Source: a virus (taxonomy: Duplodnaviria > Caudoviricetes). From it: 28,426 nt of DNA. Numbering within the stretch: position 1 is the stretch's first letter; each line of letters starts with the position of its first letter. The notes below the pieces were generated by a model. The model did no database searches, was not told the DNA's origin, and was given only the letters and a program-made list of their open reading frames with translations. The stretch covers positions 1 to 28,426 of IMG/VR virus record IMGVR_UViG_3300045000_000073. One strand, written 5' to 3'. The position numbers and the translations under genes are program-made. Positions 4,735 through 20,759 of the stretch are shown here, in pieces.

Positions 4735-5493
4735 ATGCACCCTGAGGATCCGCCGAACGGCTCATACTGCCTGTCAGGTGACCGATGCAAGGACTACAAC
4801 CACCTTGCCAAGCACTCTGCCGACATCCCCTCCACTGCCGCCCTCTGCAACACGTGCCTGACCGTGGCCGAGCGGGACATCCGGTCCCTCGTCTTCGACT
4901 ATTTCGACCTGGAACAGCTTCAGATCCCGGCCCTGTCGCAGGCACTCGACACCCAGCCGACCGGCAAACCCGGACCACCCATGCCGCTCTCGGGTGCACC
5001 AGAAGCCCTGCAGGCCGAGATCCTGCACGTTTCGACCACCTGGGAGATCGAGGTCCGCGCCCACGCTCGGCTTTCCGAACCGACCCTGGAGAAGCTGCGT
5101 GGCGCCGCCGTACAGCGGGCGGTCACAGTCATCGCCACCCATGTCGCCACCCTGGCCCGGTTTGAACCCACCGCCGTGTTCCCGACCGGCTGCGAAGACG
5201 ACCCAGCAGACGTCGCCGGCTGGGAAGCGATCCACCACCTGCAGCACCTCCACCAGCGCGCCCGGGGCATGCTCGGCCGCACCCACCGAACCAGTGTTGT
5301 GCCCGGCACCTGTTCCGGCTCCGACACCCGCCCCGACTGCGCGGCACCCCTCTACCGGGACGAGCCGCGCTTCGCCGAAGACCCCTGCCCGGTCTACTGC
5401 TCCGACGCCCGTTGCACCGCCCGGTGGACCACCGAGGAGTACGAGCGTTTCGTCGGCCTCACCGTCGCGGCCCTTACCCGGTCCGGGGTGTGA
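4735..5493 (+). CDS. Zn-finger protein, putative late-transcription regulator
   Basis: SD AAGGAG. N-terminal C..C..CxxC and C-terminal C...C...C...C clusters. Lies at the end of the middle region, before the packaging genes. Function is inferred from position. Confidence 0.7.
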   Translation: MHPEDPPNGSYCLSGDRCKDYNHLAKHSADIPSTAALCNTCLTVAERDIRSLVFDYFDLEQLQIPALSQALDTQPTGKPGPPMPLSGAPEALQAEILHVSTTWEIEVRAHARLSEPTLEKLRGAAVQRAVTVIATHVATLARFEPTAVFPTGCEDDPADVAGWEAIHHLQHLHQRARGMLGRTHRTSVVPGTCSGSDTRPDCAAPLYRDEPRFAEDPCPVYCSDARCTARWTTEEYERFVGLTVAALTRSGV

Positions 5494-10076: not shown

Positions 10077-12263
10077 GTGGGTGTTGGTAGCCGCATCCGC
10101 GAGGCATTCCGCAGCGCTTTCAGGTCTTCGGTAGCCGAGGCGTCGCAGCCGGCGCCATCACTGGAGCCGCCAAAGCCGGAGCAGGTCCGTCGGGCCGGCT
10201 TCGAGTACGGCATTCCGTTCGGTGGGGCCGCAGTTTCGCAGCAGGTCGCGAACTCCCAAGAACGCGTCCAGATTCTCACCCAACTCCATCAGGCATACCT
10301 GACGTGCCCGTGGGTGTCGGCACCGATCGACCTGATCGCCCGCACCATCACTGCCGGCGGCGTGCAGATCGTCACCGACGACGAGGTGGCCGACGGCGAG
10401 GAACCGTTCGAGCCGGACGAGCTGACCCGGTTGCGTCGACTGCTTCGGTTCACCAACCCGCACGAAGACCTGGTCCAACTGCTCCGCAACGTATGCACGG
10501 ATCTGATGCTGTTCGGGGATGCGTTCATCGAAGTCGTCTTCTTGTTGGGCGAACCGGTCGCCTTGTACATGCTCGACGCGACCACGATGACGGTCATCTG
10601 CGACGCGCACGGCGAGGTCACCGGATACCACCAGCAGACCGACACCGGCAAGCAGGCGGAGTTCAGCCTCACTGAGGTTATCCACATCTCCCTCGACGCG
10701 CCTCGGGGCGGCATCTACGGGGTCAGCCCCGCCCAGAAGGCCATGCTGCCGATCACAGCGTGGCTGTTCTGCGAGGCGACGATCAAGGAATGCTTCCGGC
10801 GCGGCGACCCGGAGAGCATGCACGTCGATTTGGCCGGGTACACCGAAACCGAGGCGCAGACGTGGCTTGAGAAGTACAAGGTGTTCAACCTCGGGCCGAA
10901 GGCCGTCGGCACGCCGGTCGTCACCCGCAACGGCTCCCAGGTGAAGTCGCTTAACCCGCGCAAGGTCACCGACTACCTCGACACCTCGCGGCAGCTTCGC
11001 GACGAAATAATTGCCACATTTGGTGTACCGCCAGCCAAGTTGGGCATCATCGAGACCGGCAACCTCGGTGGCGGCAGCGGCGAGTCGCAGAACAAGACCC
11101 TGCGGATCAACACGGTCATCCCGTTGCAGTCCTTGGTGCTGGAGAAGCTCAACTACCACCTGCTCCAGGTCGGCTTCAAAATTACCGGCTGGCACCTAGA
11201 ATTCGATGAGATCGACTACCGAGACAGTGACGTGGTGGAGAAGATCCGCGACATGCGGATCCGCAACGGACTTTATGTGCTCAACCGCGGTCGTGACGAA
11301 ATCAACGAACCACCGGTTGAGGGCGGCGACGAGGCCGTCATCATCGAGCGGGAGAACATCACCCGCTGGCGGGATGTCGAAGCCGCGTCGCAGGCCGGGA
11401 TCGCCTCGAAGTTGAAGGGCACCGCACTGGAGCCGGGCCAGCCGAAGCCCGGCGAGGCCGTGGCCGTAGAGAAACCCGAACCGGCTCCGACCCCACCGCA
11501 GTTGGCGGCGTTCACTGGCGAGCAGCCGAACCCCGACGCGCCGGGCCAGAAGTTGGACGGAGCGGGCAAGACTCCGCCGCCGGCCGAACCGTTCCCGAGC
11601 AAGGATCGGCCCGGCGGTCCCGACGACGCCACACAGGGCAAGGCGCCACGGGAGAACCGCTACGACAGGGACTTCCGGCGCCTGTCCGAATCGTGGCAGC
11701 ACGCCTACCGGGCCCGCCGCAAGATGGCGCTGGCCGGGCTGCCCACCTTCGACGAACAGACGCCCGAGCCGAAGCCGCAAGATTCCTTGCCGGTCGACCC
11801 GTACTGGGATGCCGGGCAGCATACCCACAACGACCGGCCTGACTACACCCCCCAGGATCTGGGTGTGCCCAACCTGGAGCGGGTCATCGTCGACCCGCGT
11901 GACGTGCACGTGGACCACGCCTACCAGCGGCCCCGCCAGGAAGTACTGGTGCGCCACTACGCGGATGAGCCACGACAGCGGCTCGCCGAACGTGTCGGGC
12001 TGCTCGCGCAACGGCCGGACGGAACGCTGTGGGTCATCGACGGCCAGCACCACAGCGCTGCCGCGATCGATGTTGGTATCACCGCGCTGACATACCAGCA
12101 GTTCGCTTCCAGCGGCCCAGTCATGGAGGCGCGCATCTACGCAGCCCTGCGGCTGTGGCATGGCCGACACCACGAGGACGAGCGCAGCAAGGCCACCAAG
12201 CCGGGACCGAAGACCCGAGTTCCCGGGATGCCCCAAGACCACACGGTCGCCGTCGGCAGGTAG
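10077..12263 (+). CDS. Portal protein with a Pro-rich linker and C-terminal ParB/DGQHR-like domain
   Basis: Follows terL. DLMLFGDAFIEV, GIYGVSP and IIATFGVPPAKLG are HK97-type portal motifs. Tail region has VDHAYQR...RPDGTLWVIDGQHH. Confidence 0.92.
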   Translation: MGVGSRIREAFRSAFRSSVAEASQPAPSLEPPKPEQVRRAGFEYGIPFGGAAVSQQVANSQERVQILTQLHQAYLTCPWVSAPIDLIARTITAGGVQIVTDDEVADGEEPFEPDELTRLRRLLRFTNPHEDLVQLLRNVCTDLMLFGDAFIEVVFLLGEPVALYMLDATTMTVICDAHGEVTGYHQQTDTGKQAEFSLTEVIHISLDAPRGGIYGVSPAQKAMLPITAWLFCEATIKECFRRGDPESMHVDLAGYTETEAQTWLEKYKVFNLGPKAVGTPVVTRNGSQVKSLNPRKVTDYLDTSRQLRDEIIATFGVPPAKLGIIETGNLGGGSGESQNKTLRINTVIPLQSLVLEKLNYHLLQVGFKITGWHLEFDEIDYRDSDVVEKIRDMRIRNGLYVLNRGRDEINEPPVEGGDEAVIIERENITRWRDVEAASQAGIASKLKGTALEPGQPKPGEAVAVEKPEPAPTPPQLAAFTGEQPNPDAPGQKLDGAGKTPPPAEPFPSKDRPGGPDDATQGKAPRENRYDRDFRRLSESWQHAYRARRKMALAGLPTFDEQTPEPKPQDSLPVDPYWDAGQHTHNDRPDYTPQDLGVPNLERVIVDPRDVHVDHAYQRPRQEVLVRHYADEPRQRLAERVGLLAQRPDGTLWVIDGQHHSAAAIDVGITALTYQQFASSGPVMEARIYAALRLWHGRHHEDERSKATKPGPKTRVPGMPQDHTVAVGR

Positions 12264-12277
12264 GGGAGGTGACCATC

Positions 12278-12343
12278 ATGAACCCCGGACACCCGACCCG
12301 CGCTGAAGATGTTGCGCCGCTGATCCAGAAGGTCATCGGCTGA
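12278..12343 (+). CDS. 21-aa mini-protein MNPGHPTRAEDVAPLIQKVIG, sharing PLIQKVI with the major capsid N-terminus
   Basis: SD GGGGAGGTG 6 nt before the ATG; occupies the portal-MuF gap. Confidence 0.6.
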   Translation: MNPGHPTRAEDVAPLIQKVIG

Positions 12344-12360: not shown

Positions 12361-13356
12361 GTGCACCCGATCGTGCCTTTCGCCCGCACCGCCTACGCCC
12401 AAGGTTTCGCCGCATCGGGTGGCCCGCTCACCGAGCAGGTCAAAGCCGGCTGCCTCGCCGCCGTCGAACTCGCGGTAGCGCGCGCCGACGACCCGTACGT
12501 GCTGGAGGCCACGCTTCAGCTCGGGGCGCTGGAAGGAACCTGGGCGGCCGTCTACCAGCGCCGCGAGCAGATCCACAACAGCAACGAGCAGACCGTCCTC
12601 GCGGCATGGAAAGCGCTCGGGTTGGCGTCCCAGGCCGGCGAACTCGTCACCGCAGTACGGCAACAAGCGGGACTGACCGAAGCACTGCGGGACAAGGCGC
12701 ACGGCGTCGCCGATTGGGTTACCGCGCTGATCCGTCGCCTCTTCTCTTCTCGCGTCACAGTTGACGGCTGGCATCGCCTGACGGACGCGGTCACCTCCGC
12801 CTTGAACAAGGCCCGCGCCGAAGGCCAAGCTGCCGCGCTGGGCCTGGCCGCCAACCAGCAGGGCGTGATCGGGTTTTCCTTCACCATCGCGTTCGAGGAC
12901 GCCTATCGGGCGCTGGAAAACGCCTCCACGCTCACCGGCGCGGCCGAGGCTGACGGCTGGCTTTCGCGGATCGTCGGCGGCGTCGCCGAGGAGGTAGGCG
13001 CCCGGCTGGCCACCCTCACCCGAAACGGCGCCTCGTACGACGACATGATCGCCGTCGTCTCTGACCTCCTTGACGGCACCACGAGCCGATCCGTTCAGGC
13101 GGCGGTCGACCTGCTCACGTCCCGGGCGATGTCCCAGGGCGCCCTGGACCTGTACCGGTCCGAAGGCGTGACGCACGTCGACTTTTTCGATGCAGGCGAC
13201 GGCAGGGTCTGTCCGACTTGCTCGAAGGCTGCGTCAGCCAGCCCGTATTCGATTGCCGACGCGCCGCGTCCGGGTCTACACCCACGTTGTCGCTGCTGCG
13301 TAGTGGCAGCTGCGGACCTATCCCCGGACCTACTGGCGCGCTACGTCGTCGCCTGA
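12361..13356 (+). CDS. MuF/SPP1 gp7-like minor head protein
   Basis: SD GGGAGG; C-terminal DGRVCPTC...PGLHPRCRC signature; located after the portal. Confidence 0.88.
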   Translation: MHPIVPFARTAYAQGFAASGGPLTEQVKAGCLAAVELAVARADDPYVLEATLQLGALEGTWAAVYQRREQIHNSNEQTVLAAWKALGLASQAGELVTAVRQQAGLTEALRDKAHGVADWVTALIRRLFSSRVTVDGWHRLTDAVTSALNKARAEGQAAALGLAANQQGVIGFSFTIAFEDAYRALENASTLTGAAEADGWLSRIVGGVAEEVGARLATLTRNGASYDDMIAVVSDLLDGTTSRSVQAAVDLLTSRAMSQGALDLYRSEGVTHVDFFDAGDGRVCPTCSKAASASPYSIADAPRPGLHPRCRCCVVAAADLSPDLLARYVVA

Positions 13357-14180
13357 ATTCGGGCGTACACGAGAGCGCTGACATCAATCGCCTCCTGGAT
13401 CGCTAACTCGGGTAGGCGAACAACCCGCCAACCGGCAGCCGTCAGGTGACCGTCCCTTCGAGCGTCACGCTCGACGGTTCGCTTGTGCCAGTAGTCACCG
13501 TCAACCTCAATGGCGATGCGTTGGCTCGGCAGCGCAAAGTCAATGCTCCAGCGTCCGAACTTGTACTCTTGCTCAAAGTCAAGCCCGAGGCCGTCAAGCG
13601 CGGCTCGCACGGTGGCCTCAAGGCGGTTCTCTCCTCGATGGCGCCGATAGCATGCGAGCGAACAAAACTGGCGCCTCTTGGCGTCCGCGGGTGTCCTTCG
13701 GGCGACCTTGCTGCAGGTACGGCAGGTAATTGTCACAGGGGGACGGCGACAGGTTTCGGAGCAATAGTGTCGGTTGAGGTGCTTCTCTGCACGAAACCGG
13801 ACGCCGCAACGGATGCAGTCGACGTACTTGGTGTCGCGGGTCTTGCAGGCTACCGAGCAGGTGCGATACCGATCTGCGGTCGCTCCCTTGGAAATCGTGA
13901 ACTCCCGACCGCAGGCTGGACAAGTCTTCGTGACCGGGTTGGCGCGGCTAGCCTCATAGCACTCACGCCTACAGAACATGCGGTGTCGGTTGCCCGGCTC
14001 CCCAACGCTTCCGGTCTTTGGGTCAAAGCTGATGCCACATTGGCGGCAGGTGCGCTCCGGGATGGCGATTCTCTTTGCTAGTCCATAGCACACACGAGAA
14101 CAGAAGACGCGCTTTAGGGCCGCGCGGCTTTTGCGCCTGACTTTCTGACCACATTGGGCACACGTGAAGTCGAACGGCAC
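13341..14180 (-). CDS. Multi-Zn-finger protein with a C-terminal Vsr/DUF559-like endonuclease domain
   Basis: Five CxxC...CSxxC units, then LE...LGLDFEQEY...IDFALP...IAIEVDGDYWH...RRD..L...GWRVVRL. Confidence 0.85.
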   Translation of the reverse strand: MPFDFTCAQCGQKVRRKSRAALKRVFCSRVCYGLAKRIAIPERTCRQCGISFDPKTGSVGEPGNRHRMFCRRECYEASRANPVTKTCPACGREFTISKGATADRYRTCSVACKTRDTKYVDCIRCGVRFRAEKHLNRHYCSETCRRPPVTITCRTCSKVARRTPADAKRRQFCSLACYRRHRGENRLEATVRAALDGLGLDFEQEYKFGRWSIDFALPSQRIAIEVDGDYWHKRTVERDARRDGHLTAAGWRVVRLPELAIQEAIDVSALVYARIQATT

Positions 14181-14759: not shown

Positions 14760-15203
14760 GTGGCCGTGACGTTGCAGTTGCCTCCTACCTACCCGCTGGG
14801 TTCCGCGCCGGTCCACGACATGGGGCTGGTGTTGTCCGCCGCCGCCCGGACAACAGGTCAGAGCACTCCCGACATTCAGGGCACCAACTTCAAGGGCATC
14901 ACCGTCGTCTTGGACATGACCGCAGCCGGCAGCGGGTCGGTGTTCCTGACCATCGAGGGCAAGGACACGGCCAGCGGGAAGTACTTTCCGATCCTGGCCG
15001 GCGACGGTACCCATGCGATCGCCGTAAACGGCACCTTCGTGTACACGGTGTATCCGGGCATCACCGCCGTGGTGCCGCCGCTCACCGCATCGGCGGGTAG
15101 CGCCTCGGCGTCCGGAATCCTGCCCGCCACGTTTCGGATCACAGTATCGGCGGTCAACGCAAACGCGACTACGTACACAGTGGGGGCGGTGTTGACCACG
15201 TGA
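14760..15203 (+). CDS. Beta-sandwich virion protein, possible head decoration
   Basis: KGITVVLDMTAAGSGSVFLTIEGKDTASGKYF...YTVYPG; GTGA-coupled to the protease gene. Confidence 0.7.
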   Translation: MAVTLQLPPTYPLGSAPVHDMGLVLSAAARTTGQSTPDIQGTNFKGITVVLDMTAAGSGSVFLTIEGKDTASGKYFPILAGDGTHAIAVNGTFVYTVYPGITAVVPPLTASAGSASASGILPATFRITVSAVNANATTYTVGAVLTT

Positions 15204-17053
15204 CCACCGCGACCAAACCGTTGGCCACCATCGACGGGGTGATGCTCACCCCCGGCGTGTCGAAGAACAACCGGCTGTACACGCGGGATGCGATCGGCCG
15301 GGCCGTGGCCCGAATGCGGGAACGGCTACAAGACCCGACAGGCCTGCCGATCGTGATGCGCACCCACCACGAAGCCGGGGACAACTCCCGGCTCATCGTC
15401 GGCCGGATCACCGACGTCACCCAACAGCCGGACGGATCGGCCGCCTACAAGGCGCACCTGTACAACACGGACGCCGGACGAGACATCGGAACCCTCATCG
15501 ACCCTAAGGCACCCGCCCTGAAGTCGACGAGCGTCCACGGCTACTGGATCGGACCGATCGAACGGCACCGGCAGGGCGCGGACACGATCGAGACCGCCGA
15601 CGACCTGGAGGTGGACGCCATCGACTTCACCGCCTCGCCGGGCGTTACGGGGGCACAGATCCGGAGTGTGGCGTTCGAGTCCGTGTCCAAGAGTGCGGCC
15701 GACGGTGCGGCGATCACCGAAACCGCCGACGCCACTGTCACCCTCGACGCGGACGTCCTGACCGAGGTCGCGGACGAACCCAATCCGATCTTCGAGAAAT
15801 ACAGTGCCGCGCAGCGCAAGTCCATGGCCGCGAAAGGTCAAGCCATGACCAACGGGTCGTATCCGATCGCCAACAAGGGCGACGTGCGTAAGGCGATCCG
15901 GGCCGTCGGTCGTGGCGGCGCCGACCACGACGCGATCCGCAAACACATCATCGCCCGCGCGAAGGCCCTCGGGTTCGCATCAATGATTCCCGACACCTGG
16001 GCCAACGACGGATCCATGAAGGAAACGGCACCGACAGTGCCGGCCGAACCTGACATGACGCCGATCGACGAGGCGTACGTGCTGGTCTGCGTCGGCGACG
16101 ACAGTGGGCCGCTCGTCTCGGTCCGCTCCAGCAACGTGGACCCGGGCGACGTCAAGAAGGCCGCCAAGCAGGCAGCGAAGATAGCCGCCCGCGCCATCAA
16201 AAACGCCCCCGACGAGCCAGCCCCTGCCGAGCCGGACGACGGCACCTACGACACCGCCTACAGCGGCGAAACCCACACCCCGGAGGGAACTGTGGCGCAA
16301 ACCTGGACCGTCAGCGTCAACGGCAAAGAGATGGACGCCGACGAGGCCAAGGCCATCGTCGCCGCAGCTGTCGCTGAGACCGCACCCAAGACCCCCGCCC
16401 CGGCGGTGGAACCCGCTCCAACCCCCGCCGCAGCCCCGGCTGTGGTCGAACAGAAGGAGGTCGCCGTGAGCGACACCGCCAAGGTCGTCGAGCAGGCGAC
16501 TCCCGTTCCCGCGCCGGTAGCCCCTGCGGCAACCGACCTGCCTGCCCTCATCGCTGCGGCCGTCAACGTCGCGGTGACCTCCGCCGTGGCGGAGGCGCTG
16601 CCGAAGGCCGTCAAGAAGGCCCTCAAGGAGCGGAAGCCCGACAAGGCCAGTCAAGGTGTCCAGCAGGCTGCCGCGCCCGCGGTGATCCCGCCGGCCGCCG
16701 CACCCGCAACCGAGACCGCCCCTGTCACCCCGACTGCCACCGCCGAGAGCACCACGAAGGCGGGCACAACCCAGGTGACCGAAGCGGCCCCGGCAGAGGC
16801 CGGCATCACCGCCGCGCAGCTCAAGGAGGCGCTGGAGGCGGAGCGGACCAAGACGATTGCGGAGGTCCGCACCCAGCTGCTTAACGAGAACGGGGTGCCC
16901 GGCCGCAAGGGCTACCGGGTCAACGAGTCGGACGGCAAGTCCGAGGCCACCGGCGACGACCTGTGGGACCGGCGTTCCGAGGTGTGGAGCCAGGTCTTCC
17001 CGTCGCAAATGTCACCCGCCCCCGCCCCGGCCGTCGCTGCGACTGCGGCGTAG
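15200..17053 (+). CDS. Prohead protease-scaffold fusion
   Basis: GVSKNNRLY, THH...IVGRI, TSVHG, IDFTASPGV.GA resemble a herpes/T4 gp21-like protease fold. Ala/Pro/Glu-rich C-terminal half. Directly precedes the capsid gene. Confidence 0.85.
   Translation: MTTATKPLATIDGVMLTPGVSKNNRLYTRDAIGRAVARMRERLQDPTGLPIVMRTHHEAGDNSRLIVGRITDVTQQPDGSAAYKAHLYNTDAGRDIGTLIDPKAPALKSTSVHGYWIGPIERHRQGADTIETADDLEVDAIDFTASPGVTGAQIRSVAFESVSKSAADGAAITETADATVTLDADVLTEVADEPNPIFEKYSAAQRKSMAAKGQAMTNGSYPIANKGDVRKAIRAVGRGGADHDAIRKHIIARAKALGFASMIPDTWANDGSMKETAPTVPAEPDMTPIDEAYVLVCVGDDSGPLVSVRSSNVDPGDVKKAAKQAAKIAARAIKNAPDEPAPAEPDDGTYDTAYSGETHTPEGTVAQTWTVSVNGKEMDADEAKAIVAAAVAETAPKTPAPAVEPAPTPAAAPAVVEQKEVAVSDTAKVVEQATPVPAPVAPAATDLPALIAAAVNVAVTSAVAEALPKAVKKALKERKPDKASQGVQQAAAPAVIPPAAAPATETAPVTPTATAESTTKAGTTQVTEAAPAEAGITAAQLKEALEAERTKTIAEVRTQLLNENGVPGRKGYRVNESDGKSEATGDDLWDRRSEVWSQVFPSQMSPAPAPAVAATAA
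16466..17053 (+). CDS. Putative nested in-frame scaffolding protein, 195 aa
   Basis: Strong internal SD AGAAGGAGG 5 nt before an in-frame GTG (MSDTAKVVEQ...). Confidence 0.6.
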   Translation: MSDTAKVVEQATPVPAPVAPAATDLPALIAAAVNVAVTSAVAEALPKAVKKALKERKPDKASQGVQQAAAPAVIPPAAAPATETAPVTPTATAESTTKAGTTQVTEAAPAEAGITAAQLKEALEAERTKTIAEVRTQLLNENGVPGRKGYRVNESDGKSEATGDDLWDRRSEVWSQVFPSQMSPAPAPAVAATAA

Positions 17054-17145: not shown

Positions 17146-18528
17146 GTGCCCACCGAACTGCAGGAGGCCCTGACGGTCGCCTCGGCCGTCACGCCGCTCA
17201 TTCAGAAGGTCATCGATCCGCTGCTTCTGGAGTACCAGCGCCGGTACTCCCCGCTGCTGGCGATGATGCCCAGCAAGCAGTGGAGCTCCACCCAGTACTT
17301 CTTCAATCGCAGGACAGCGCGTCCTGACGCCGGTGGCGTGGTTGACGGTGGTGCCCGGCCGATCGGCAACTCCACCTACGAGCAGGCCGTGTTCAACATT
17401 CGCCTGCTTCAGGCGGTCGGCAGTGTGACCGGATTCGCGCAGACCGTCACCAGGGACCTGATCGGTGACCTGCGGCAGATGGAAATCGACGGCACCGTCA
17501 CCTCCCTCATGTACACGATGGAGTGTGACGCCATCTGGGGTCACGATGGAGCTACGGCCAATGGTGCGTACCCGATCTTCTCTGGCTTCGACTACCTGGT
17601 CAGCAACTGGGCCGCAGGGTCGGGCAGCAACGCGTACATCAACGCCTTCGACGTGAACAACTCGTTCACGATCGCCCGGCTGGACGAGCTGATCGACCTG
17701 GTGGAGGCCAACGCGGCGATGCCGCTGAACTCCAACTACATGTTCGTAATGTCGTCGCGGATGGCGTCGGCCGTGTCCCAGGCCGCGTTCCCGCAGCAGC
17801 GTTTCGACAGCCGCAACGAGATGCAGATCGCCGGTCTGACGGTGCCCTCGTACCGGGGCATCCCGATCAGCAAGTCCTCGTTCGTGTCGCCGCGCTCCAC
17901 CCAGATGGGCACGGTCACCTCGGCGACGGCGGCGACCGCTGGCACCCTGGCCCAGAACACCAACTACAAGTACTACGTGTCCGCGGTCATCGCCCGGTTC
18001 GGGGAGACCCAGGTGTCCGGTGAGGTCAGCCAGACGACTGGTAACACGACCGCCACGAACACGATCACGCTGACCGTGGCGGCACCGGCGAACATGCCCG
18101 ACGGCGCCGGGCCGATCCTGTACAAGGTGTACCGCACGGCCGGTGCTGGTGCGTCGGGCTCAGAGTCGCTGCTCGGCGTCGTGGACGCGTTCGACACCAC
18201 CGGTGCGGCGGTGACCAGCATCATCGACAACGGCACGAACCTGCTCACCAACTCCGGCGCCAACACGGGTCCGACTGCCTACCAGGGTGGCAACGCGGGC
18301 GCCCTGCCGCGCGGTGTCGGCGGCGTGGCGCACGAGGACATCTACCTCGTGCCCCGCGACCCCAATTTCCTGGTCCGGCCGTACACCCGCGACGTGCAGG
18401 TGATCCCGCTCGCCCCGACGGTGACGAGCCCAGATTCTTTGCCGTTCGCGCTCGTGAGTGACACCACGGTCGCTGTGCGTGCACCGAAGTACGTGGGTCG
18501 GCTCAGTCGCGTCGTGGCCAACATCTAG
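17146..18528 (+). CDS. Major capsid protein (HK97 fold, SU10-like) with an inserted FN3/Ig-like domain
   Basis: SD GGAGG before GTG 17146. VGSVTGFAQ, E.DAIWG, FSGFD and YRGIPI motifs, and position after the scaffold. Confidence 0.9.
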   Translation: MPTELQEALTVASAVTPLIQKVIDPLLLEYQRRYSPLLAMMPSKQWSSTQYFFNRRTARPDAGGVVDGGARPIGNSTYEQAVFNIRLLQAVGSVTGFAQTVTRDLIGDLRQMEIDGTVTSLMYTMECDAIWGHDGATANGAYPIFSGFDYLVSNWAAGSGSNAYINAFDVNNSFTIARLDELIDLVEANAAMPLNSNYMFVMSSRMASAVSQAAFPQQRFDSRNEMQIAGLTVPSYRGIPISKSSFVSPRSTQMGTVTSATAATAGTLAQNTNYKYYVSAVIARFGETQVSGEVSQTTGNTTATNTITLTVAAPANMPDGAGPILYKVYRTAGAGASGSESLLGVVDAFDTTGAAVTSIIDNGTNLLTNSGANTGPTAYQGGNAGALPRGVGGVAHEDIYLVPRDPNFLVRPYTRDVQVIPLAPTVTSPDSLPFALVSDTTVAVRAPKYVGRLSRVVANI

Positions 18529-19725: not shown

Positions 19726-20220
19726 ATGGTCGCTACTCACACCGAGGATGCGGTAGCCCGCGAAGCGGCGTGGCTACGGACCGCCAACGACGGACTCCCG
19801 GCGCTCCTGGCTACTGCGGGCGGGCCGTGGAACAACGTGCAGGCATACCGGCCCCGAACTCCATACGACGAGCAGCGTTCGATCTTCGTGTTGCGGCACA
19901 GGATCACCCAGAAACGGTTCGCTACCCAGCGGGTCATGCACACCTACCCGTTTCGGCTGATCCTGTGGTGGCCGATACTGGCCGTTAACGGGAGCGCCGA
20001 AGACGAGGAGGCGGCGTTCGACGTCGCAATCGACCTGCTGCTGCAGCGCATTCTCGGCCCACTCGGCGACAAAACCCATGGCGGCAGGTTCCTGTCCGTC
20101 GGCGAGAACGGGCCGATTGTGGACGTCGACTACGCCGACCCGGAGCAGACGATTCCTGTCCTGGGTGGGCTGCGGGCCGAGGTGACGTACTCGGCCGACG
20201 ACCGGGAAATCAACGCATGA
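19726..20220 (+). CDS. Putative tail terminator/completion protein
   Basis: ATG 19726 with a G-rich SD; DAVAREAAWL...GDKTHGGRF; neck-module position. Confidence 0.65.
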   Translation: MVATHTEDAVAREAAWLRTANDGLPALLATAGGPWNNVQAYRPRTPYDEQRSIFVLRHRITQKRFATQRVMHTYPFRLILWWPILAVNGSAEDEEAAFDVAIDLLLQRILGPLGDKTHGGRFLSVGENGPIVDVDYADPEQTIPVLGGLRAEVTYSADDREINA

Positions 20221-20759
20221 CGAGCCGGCGCGGGCATCACCTGTCGGCTGCCGCCCGCGCCAAAATCTCGCAGCGTCTGAAGGGCAAGCATCACCCGCAC
20301 AAGGGTCATGCGATGTCCCCGGCCGCGCGACGCAAGATCGCCGCGCGGCTCAAGGGCAGGCACCACAAAGGGCACAAGCTGTCCGCCGTAGCGCGGGCGA
20401 AGATCTCCGCCAAACTGAAGGGCCGTCACCACAAGGGGCACCCCATGTCGGCGTCGGCGCGCGCCAAACTGTCGGCAAAGCTCAAAGGCCGGCATCACAA
20501 AGGCCATCCGGTGTCCGCAACGACCCGAGCCAAACTGTCGGCGGCAACGAGGGCCCGGCATCCGGCGAAGTTGAAGGCGGTGGCGAAGGGCAAGCTGGCC
20601 GCGCACCTGCGCAAGCAGCACCCGTACCGTCCCGTTCAGATCCGCCACCGGCATGCGCTCGCCCGGCACGGGTTCCATCGGCCACGCCCACGCCGTCACG
20701 GCATCACCCGTCAGCACTGGAGACGCCACCACCGTCGCCGTCCCCGCCGGCCCCGCTAG
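20217..20759 (+). CDS. Extremely basic His/Lys/Arg tandem-repeat protein (NUMOD3-like repeats)
   Basis: ATGA coupling. Five units resembling GHxxSaxaRAKiSAkLKGRHHK. No Asp or Glu in 180 aa. Confidence 0.8.
   Translation: MTSRRGHHLSAAARAKISQRLKGKHHPHKGHAMSPAARRKIAARLKGRHHKGHKLSAVARAKISAKLKGRHHKGHPMSASARAKLSAKLKGRHHKGHPVSATTRAKLSAATRARHPAKLKAVAKGKLAAHLRKQHPYRPVQIRHRHALARHGFHRPRPRRHGITRQHWRRHHRRRPRRPR
20232..20561 (+). repeat. Coding tandem repeat, 66-nt period
   Basis: CACAARGG at 20298, 20364, 20430 and 20496, with synonymous variation between units. Confidence 0.85.

Follow-up and report, generated by a model that had tools for sequence, protein, structure and literature searches.

A portal-adjacent micro-gene encodes a peptide resembling the N-terminal arm of the phage's own major capsid protein

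The window, which is the whole 28,426-base stretch analysed here, carries a siphophage-like structural module that extends from the terminase through the tail tube and tape measure. The genes and sites that surround the micro-gene described below, together with its own parts, are listed in Table 1.

Table 1. Features of the head module and of the micro-gene in the window
Feature	Coordinates	Strand	Remarks
Portal protein, 728 aa, long C-terminal extension	10077..12263	+	PF04860, phrog_12
Shine-Dalgarno (SD) site	12263..12272	+	GGGGAGGTGA; GGGGAGGTG at 12263-12271
Micro-gene	12278..12343	+	21 aa, MNPGHPTRAEDVAPLIQKVIG; ATG at 12278, TGA at 12341-12343
Capsid-arm-like segment, 15 residues of the micro-gene peptide	12296..12340	+	
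MuF-like minor head protein	12361..13356	+	phrog_115, phrog_4728
Protease-scaffold fusion, probable	15200..17053	+	weak phrog_207 match, E 0.011; gene position
Major capsid protein, 460 aa	17146..18528	+	phrog_752 major head protein, E 2e-21
Capsid L5-Q6-E7-A8, possible maturation cleavage site (between E and A)	17158..17169	+	putative
Capsid residues 10-24, matched N-terminal arm	17173..17217	+	low model confidence; helix follows from residue 24

The portal protein runs for about 300 residues past position 430 (11367-12263), against 78-230 residues in the relatives listed, and the extension has a weak ParB-like match (phrog_1033, E 5e-4). The 331-aa MuF-like protein of the window is without a 2H phosphoesterase domain, which occupies the N-terminus of the MuF-like gene products of some relatives (L018:1959-3458, L052:5936-7468 and L059:6133-7425; PF13563 above cut-off). 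In these relatives the domain bears a weak, below-cut-off likeness to the anti-CBASS protein Acb1 (PF23474), and a MuF-borne 2H phosphoesterase could be a virion-carried counter-defence enzyme. Within the head module, a cysteine-rich DUF559/Vsr-like endonuclease gene is found on the minus strand (13341-14180) and is probably a mobile endonuclease. In the neck-tail region, a gene at 20217-20759 encodes a basic protein with a NUMOD3 motif and repeated Lys/His-rich segments, and similar segments also occur in L007 and L037.

The predicted structures of the window capsid protein and of that of a relative both have the HK97 fold, and the closest solved structure is the SPO1 capsid (9vel). The monomer model of the relative's capsid has a mean pLDDT of 92, with only residues 1-21 under 50; the stretch that the micro-gene copies is poorly placed in this model, as would be expected for an arm that binds other subunits. 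Proteases of the T4 gp21 type cleave after hydrophobic-x-Glu. By analogy with T4 gp21, the hydrophobic-x-E-A motif preceding the capsid arm is a candidate maturation cleavage site, and L5, E7 and A8 are invariant in 58 close capsids. Sites of the hydrophobic-x-Glu type number six in the protease-scaffold protein, four in the portal, three in the terminase, two each in MuF and the capsid, and zero in the tape measure and tube. The accessible part of one source describes the protease removing the N-terminal 65 residues of the capsid protein (PMC9958956).

The micro-gene directly follows the portal gene, and its SD site begins on the final base of the portal stop TAG (12261-12263). An earlier sequence-only reading had described an SD site, an ATG and a short peptide between portal and MuF, and direct reading of the window finds all three as described. 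The same reading had reported a match to the capsid N-terminus at eight of nine residues; this match is in fact longer, as the last 15 residues of the peptide (TRAEDVAPLIQKVIG) are identical to capsid residues 10-24 (TVASAVTPLIQKVID) at 10 of 15 positions. The reading had placed PLIQKVI correctly at the start of the capsid protein, but the capsid gene starts with the GTG at 17146 and not with an ATG. The DNA encoding PLIQKVI begins at 12317 in the micro-gene and at 17194 in the capsid gene, and the two stretches do differ, as had been stated, at only two positions, both synonymous third positions. The selection on the peptide that was read from this is a weak argument on its own, because the peptide and arm use identical codons at 5 of their 10 shared residues, where 6.7 are expected from codon usage. 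From the window alone the match to the capsid is marginal (p ~0.06), because 130 of 20000 shuffled peptides did equally well against the 7203 residues of window proteins and because nine SD-led ORFs of 15-40 aa on the plus strand could have been selected. It is the evidence from the family, not from the window alone, that settles the reality of the match.

Loci retrieved with capsid alignments yielded 37 motif hits, of which 26 are non-identical close copies; the search pattern fixed the H, P, R, D and K residues and left the codons free. Three more divergent copies were recovered by profile. The 26 close copies encode 20-25 residues and vary in both their start codons (ATG in 20, GTG in six) and their stop codons (TGA in 20, TAG in four and TAA in two), and all six arginine codons are used at the core arginine. 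An SD match of at least five bases precedes 24 of the 26, whereas such a match precedes 7% of all ATG/GTG codons. The pN/pS ratio is 0.32 in frame, compared with 1.3 and 1.8 in the other plus-strand frames and 0.54-2.1 on the reverse strand. A degenerate DNA pattern matched 33 stretches in IMG/VR, every one of them in the head module of the micro-gene family, and a stop immediately follows the motif in 32. The free choice among six arginine codons and three stops, along with the in-frame pN/pS, upholds the earlier proposal that selection acts at the level of the protein and not merely of the nucleotides.

A reading without any protein gene, in which the locus holds a DNA or RNA element, a frameshift tail of the portal or a chance ORF, could draw on the marginal probability obtained from the window and on the frame being open back to the portal stop in all 39 adjacent cases. 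It has to contend with the codon-level selection and with a gene that has its own SD site and start. A structured RNA or DNA repeat was rejected on the codon-level selection, on a folding z-score of -0.07, which indicates no unusual fold in the micro-gene region, and on the lack of any Rfam match to this region. A portal frameshift tail was rejected as a conserved feature because the micro-gene does not keep a constant frame relative to the portal (the 39 cases divide into 23, 14 and 2). We consider a non-gene origin scarcely credible. On this comparative evidence, the 21-codon ORF is a real protein-coding micro-gene that belongs to an overlooked family. The peptides tested match no family in Pfam or PHROG, a search of the ESM Atlas gave no usable match, and a sequence search of solved structures gave no match. 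All named homologues are annotated as hypothetical, and seven of the ten members looked up, that of the window among them, are absent as exact sequences from a collection of 15 billion proteins.

The motif is widespread among related head modules. In the two nearer capsid groups, 93 loci span both portal and capsid; the motif lies at the end of an ORF in 86 of these and is followed by extra residues (nine in L249) in four more, so that 90 of the 93 carry a motif-bearing micro-gene. Together with the SD sites before the close copies, this answers in the affirmative the check proposed earlier, whether an SD-led micro-ORF is conserved in relatives. The three loci without it are L053 (a Catenulispora MAG), L258 and L259; in L053 the protease gene directly follows the portal and MuF is absent too. 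In the most distant capsid group the motif was found in 0 of 19 loci, also when these were searched with their own arms. The 93- and 19-locus counts treat two loci as one only where 300 capsid bases are identical, so near-twins are counted separately. Because it is absent from three of the 93 related and all 19 distant loci, the micro-gene is not required by every such capsid. Relatives occur in Streptomyces, Kitasatospora, Amycolatopsis, Streptacidiphilus and Catenulispora genomes, and the prophage carriers include soil strains such as Streptomyces olivoverticillatus CECT 3266, S. yunnanensis CGMCC 4.3555 and Kitasatospora humi RB6PN24. Among 50,697 INPHARED phage records there was no cultured close relative, and only four distant Leptospira phage records matched.

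Of 70 loci, 69 have the micro-gene downstream of the portal stop, and in 38 the distance is at most 200 nt. Dependence on MuF was rejected, as 20 loci with the micro-gene have no detectable MuF. Members found with the distant capsid alignments, for one of which the best 80 of 262 matches were used, are longer; most have about 27-50 residues, in which a leader rich in Pro and acidic residues precedes a C-terminal motif, and their start positions are less certain. Directly after the portal of L161 (5356-5697), a 113-aa protein combines a fibronectin III domain (PF00041 above cut-off) with a C-terminal arm motif. In L154 (6661-6804) and L225 (near 6167) a CxxC-type segment is fused to the motif, and it resembles a small CxxC...ARDCE..H frame that follows the portal stop in L015, L017, L049, L051 and L059 and has no Pfam match. 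Longer fused forms were not found among 8000 candidates, which is weak evidence. One apparent fusion, the 598-aa cluster member P0280, is actually an unrelated protein, and an arm-like match in L197 sits within an unrelated 191-aa ORF. In L027, the intact gene is preceded, at a distance of about 100 bases, by a partial second copy of the first half of the micro-gene (5074-5240).

The likeness to the phage's own capsid arm was measured with profiles blind to the capsid. Scored with a profile of the close-group peptides only, residues 7-24 of the phage's own capsid ranked in the top three among all other six-frame windows in each of 29 loci, and came first in 26. None of 20000 column-shuffled profiles scored as high as the family did at any position of the capsid alignment. 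With leave-one-out profiles, the own arm came first in 75 of 75 loci (median 37,810 windows); in distant loci the ORF chosen was the one ranked top by the capsid-blind profile. Loci with too little sequence upstream of the capsid gene were left out of the pairs, and four L239-type loci that were found later also lie outside the 75. Identity between peptide and own arm averages 7.5 of 15 residues over the 75 pairs (range 3 to 13) and is only 3-4 of 15 in eight loci. In 73 of the 75, the stop comes directly after the motif, at the point corresponding to the start of the first confident helix of the capsid. The micro-gene also has residues of its own that differ from the arm, an R in 43 of 75 and a D in 49 of 75. 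These comparisons bear out the proposed resemblance to the capsid N-terminus and place the likeness to the phage's own N-terminal segment far beyond chance.

The match starts immediately behind the capsid's invariant L-x-E-A, a position that would suit a peptide that mimics the capsid cleavage region and acts on the prohead protease as decoy or regulator. All 75 capsids have the hydrophobic-x-E-A motif just ahead of the arm, but E-A occurs in only one of 75 peptides, and conservation of the micro-gene motif is strongest 8-15 residues beyond the predicted cut. Because the residues preceding the predicted cut are not copied, we regard a protease decoy as very improbable.

The sequence-only reading had raised co-variation with each phage's own capsid as a check on the peptide, and this was assessed in several ways. 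A naive permutation that ignores kinship was highly significant, with 449 observed identities versus 354 +/- 11 for 59 pairs. On a capsid tree built without the arm (a quick tree, with changes placed by parsimony), changes on the same branch, in the same column and to the same residue amounted to 12.2, compared with 4.4 +/- 2.0 expected; one of 6000 null draws, in which changes were re-dealt over the branches, reached 12.2, and mismatched columns gave 1.4 co-changes. Ten co-change events are unambiguous. They include L to T and A to P at the base of the 28-member group to which the window belongs, both A to P and L to F within a clade of eight members, and a change of Q to V on the branch of the window itself. 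Independent pairs gave 5 vs 5 for all pairs in 59 loci, 7 vs 2 for the informative ones (p 0.09), and a median of 10 vs 3 in 75 loci (p ~0.05, range 0.006-0.19); the pair tests omit L004, a repeat of L002, and L219, L231 and L251, repeats of L172, L118 and L166. In 10 of 75 capsids the arm lysine is replaced by threonine while the micro-gene peptide is unchanged. The co-variation thus holds on the tree and at the protein level, but is modest at the tips and is not followed by one clade. Of the outcomes that the sequence-only reading had listed as refuting its proposal, those open to sequence analysis were not observed.

Recent gene conversion or DNA copying was rejected as the source of the likeness, because peptide and arm use the same codon at only 271 of 563 shared residues, where 352 are expected. 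An old duplicate of the capsid start that has since taken an unrelated job, or convergence on a shared partner such as the scaffold, would be in keeping with the peptide's own conserved R and D and with the clade that does not track its capsid. Against this explanation, peptide and arm changed to the same residue more often than under the null, and the own arm took first rank in all 75 loci, which makes it very doubtful. As for origin, an old duplication followed by co-evolution would seem more likely than convergence. By the same comparisons, the eight-of-nine match in the window combines a pattern shared by the whole family with at least one co-change specific to its lineage, and the statistical relation of the family to the own capsid arm is solid.

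The preferred interpretation is that the peptide binds where a capsid N-arm would bind and supplies the partner arm missing at the portal vertex. The peptide would be made together with the portal, probably in small amounts. If the capsid is cut after LQE, before the A, the matched segment would become the mature N-terminus and would bind neighbouring subunits, as HK97-fold N-arms do. For R4C, penton-hexon contacts are described as mainly two antiparallel N-arms (PMC10276861), and the account of P74-26 states that the hexons around the portal vertex have to make up for the absent penton (PMC12407722). The missing penton would leave about five sites without a partner arm, and the peptide would fill these, while its specific H-P-x-R-A-x-D residues would contact something that the capsid arm never meets, such as the portal or DNA. 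We put the probability at about 50% that a free copy of the own arm, encoded next to the portal gene, fills the vertex gap in this manner and has co-evolved across lineages whose capsids are 40-60% identical, with an FN3 or metal-finger tether in some members. The portal vertex is the best guess for the site, at similar odds, on the basis of gene position. A complex prediction with two arm-less capsid subunits (residues 24-462) and 30 residues of the 41-aa member from L156 scored 0.02 in a run without controls, and weighs neither for nor against binding. The mechanism is plausible and unproven.

The same arm match and co-change would be predicted for an assembly factor that is not part of the virion, a transient occupant of the arm groove that times nucleation on the portal, or expansion, or disturbs the assembly of related phages. 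Copying of the predicted mature arm and not of the propeptide accords with such a factor, and the portal linkage would fit nucleation. In its weapon version the peptide should diverge from its own capsid or track foreign ones; instead it tracks its own. We rate an assembly factor as unlikely, though deserving of weight. An arm-mimic retained in the virion could alternatively occupy arm-type sites elsewhere on the shell, as a cement or cargo tether that is not specific to the portal. The motif ends the FN3 protein of L161, for which surface display fits at least as well, as well as the CxxC-type small proteins of L154 and L225, and many members have Pro- and acid-rich leaders; a corresponding design is seen in phage Milano, where an arm-plus-Ig form (LP1) and an arm-only form (LP2) coexist, according to the available text (PMC10491603). 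Arm sites beyond the portal vertex should, however, already hold the capsid's own arms, most members have no domain, and the gene adjoins the portal rather than the capsid gene. A shell-wide role seems unlikely on balance.

Among known systems, the nearest likeness to the proposed spare arm at the portal vertex is in LP2 (gp128) of the Agrobacterium phage Milano, a 38-residue capsid protein that was missed by annotation and closely resembles the N-terminal strand of another virion protein, LP1, as the accessible text describes it (PMC10491603). In that account (PMC10491603) LP2 copies the arm of LP1 and not that of the major capsid protein, sits on both pentamers and hexamers, and is anchored by disulfides; unlike the cross-linking LP1 and LP2, the micro-gene motif has no conserved cysteine. 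The crAss001 protein gp57 is a small protein present only at the portal vertex, where it substitutes for gp36 at places occluded by the portal; it replaces an auxiliary protein and not a capsid arm, forms a disulfide-linked dimer, and is reported without any capsid-protein likeness in the part of the source available (PMC10172136). The PVP (gp34) of the Oshimavirus P74-26 is found in five copies at the aperture, and at the site of the missing penton its arm joins a beta-sheet in the P-domain of the capsid. This protein is globular, resembles T7 gp2 and a crAss001 auxiliary protein, and is not described as a copy of a capsid arm in the available text (PMC12407722). A globular domain like that of gp57 or PVP is ruled out for the micro-gene peptide by its length of 21 aa. 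The actinophage accessory protein gp4 of Patience and Adjutor (54-102 aa) is disordered when free and fills an inter-subunit gap; it differs in bridging split hexamers across the shell, and no capsid-arm likeness is described in the accessible text (PMC11965321). In known capsids of the HK97 fold the arm belongs to the capsid chain itself, whereas the micro-gene separately encodes an additional, free copy.

A search of the full-text literature, largely restricted to papers outside subscription, turned up no case in which the arm of a major capsid protein exists as a separate copy. The earlier statement that there is no described equivalent therefore stands for the copying of the capsid's own arm, which is the new element, but not more widely, since an arm-only microprotein in Milano and accessory proteins at portal vertices are known. 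The micro-gene peptide may work like the small capsid accessory proteins while lying, by sequence, outside their families.

How an icosahedral shell accommodates the vertex where a portal takes the place of five subunits has so far been answered phage by phage with cryo-EM. Here the sequence alone points to a simple candidate for that vertex, a separately encoded spare capsid arm, which would predict a copy number near five, density with five-fold symmetry at a single vertex, and rescue that depends on matching alleles. Peptides able to occupy arm sites could also become tools for labelling capsid assembly, or interfering with it, in actinomycete phages studied in the laboratory. Short head genes of this type are likely being missed, because no Pfam or PHROG model covers them and most of the members looked up are absent from the large protein collection. 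If the spare-arm interpretation is true, it would be a case of self-mimicry that genome-wide scans could detect by matching the small ORFs of each phage to the N-terminus of its own capsid protein.
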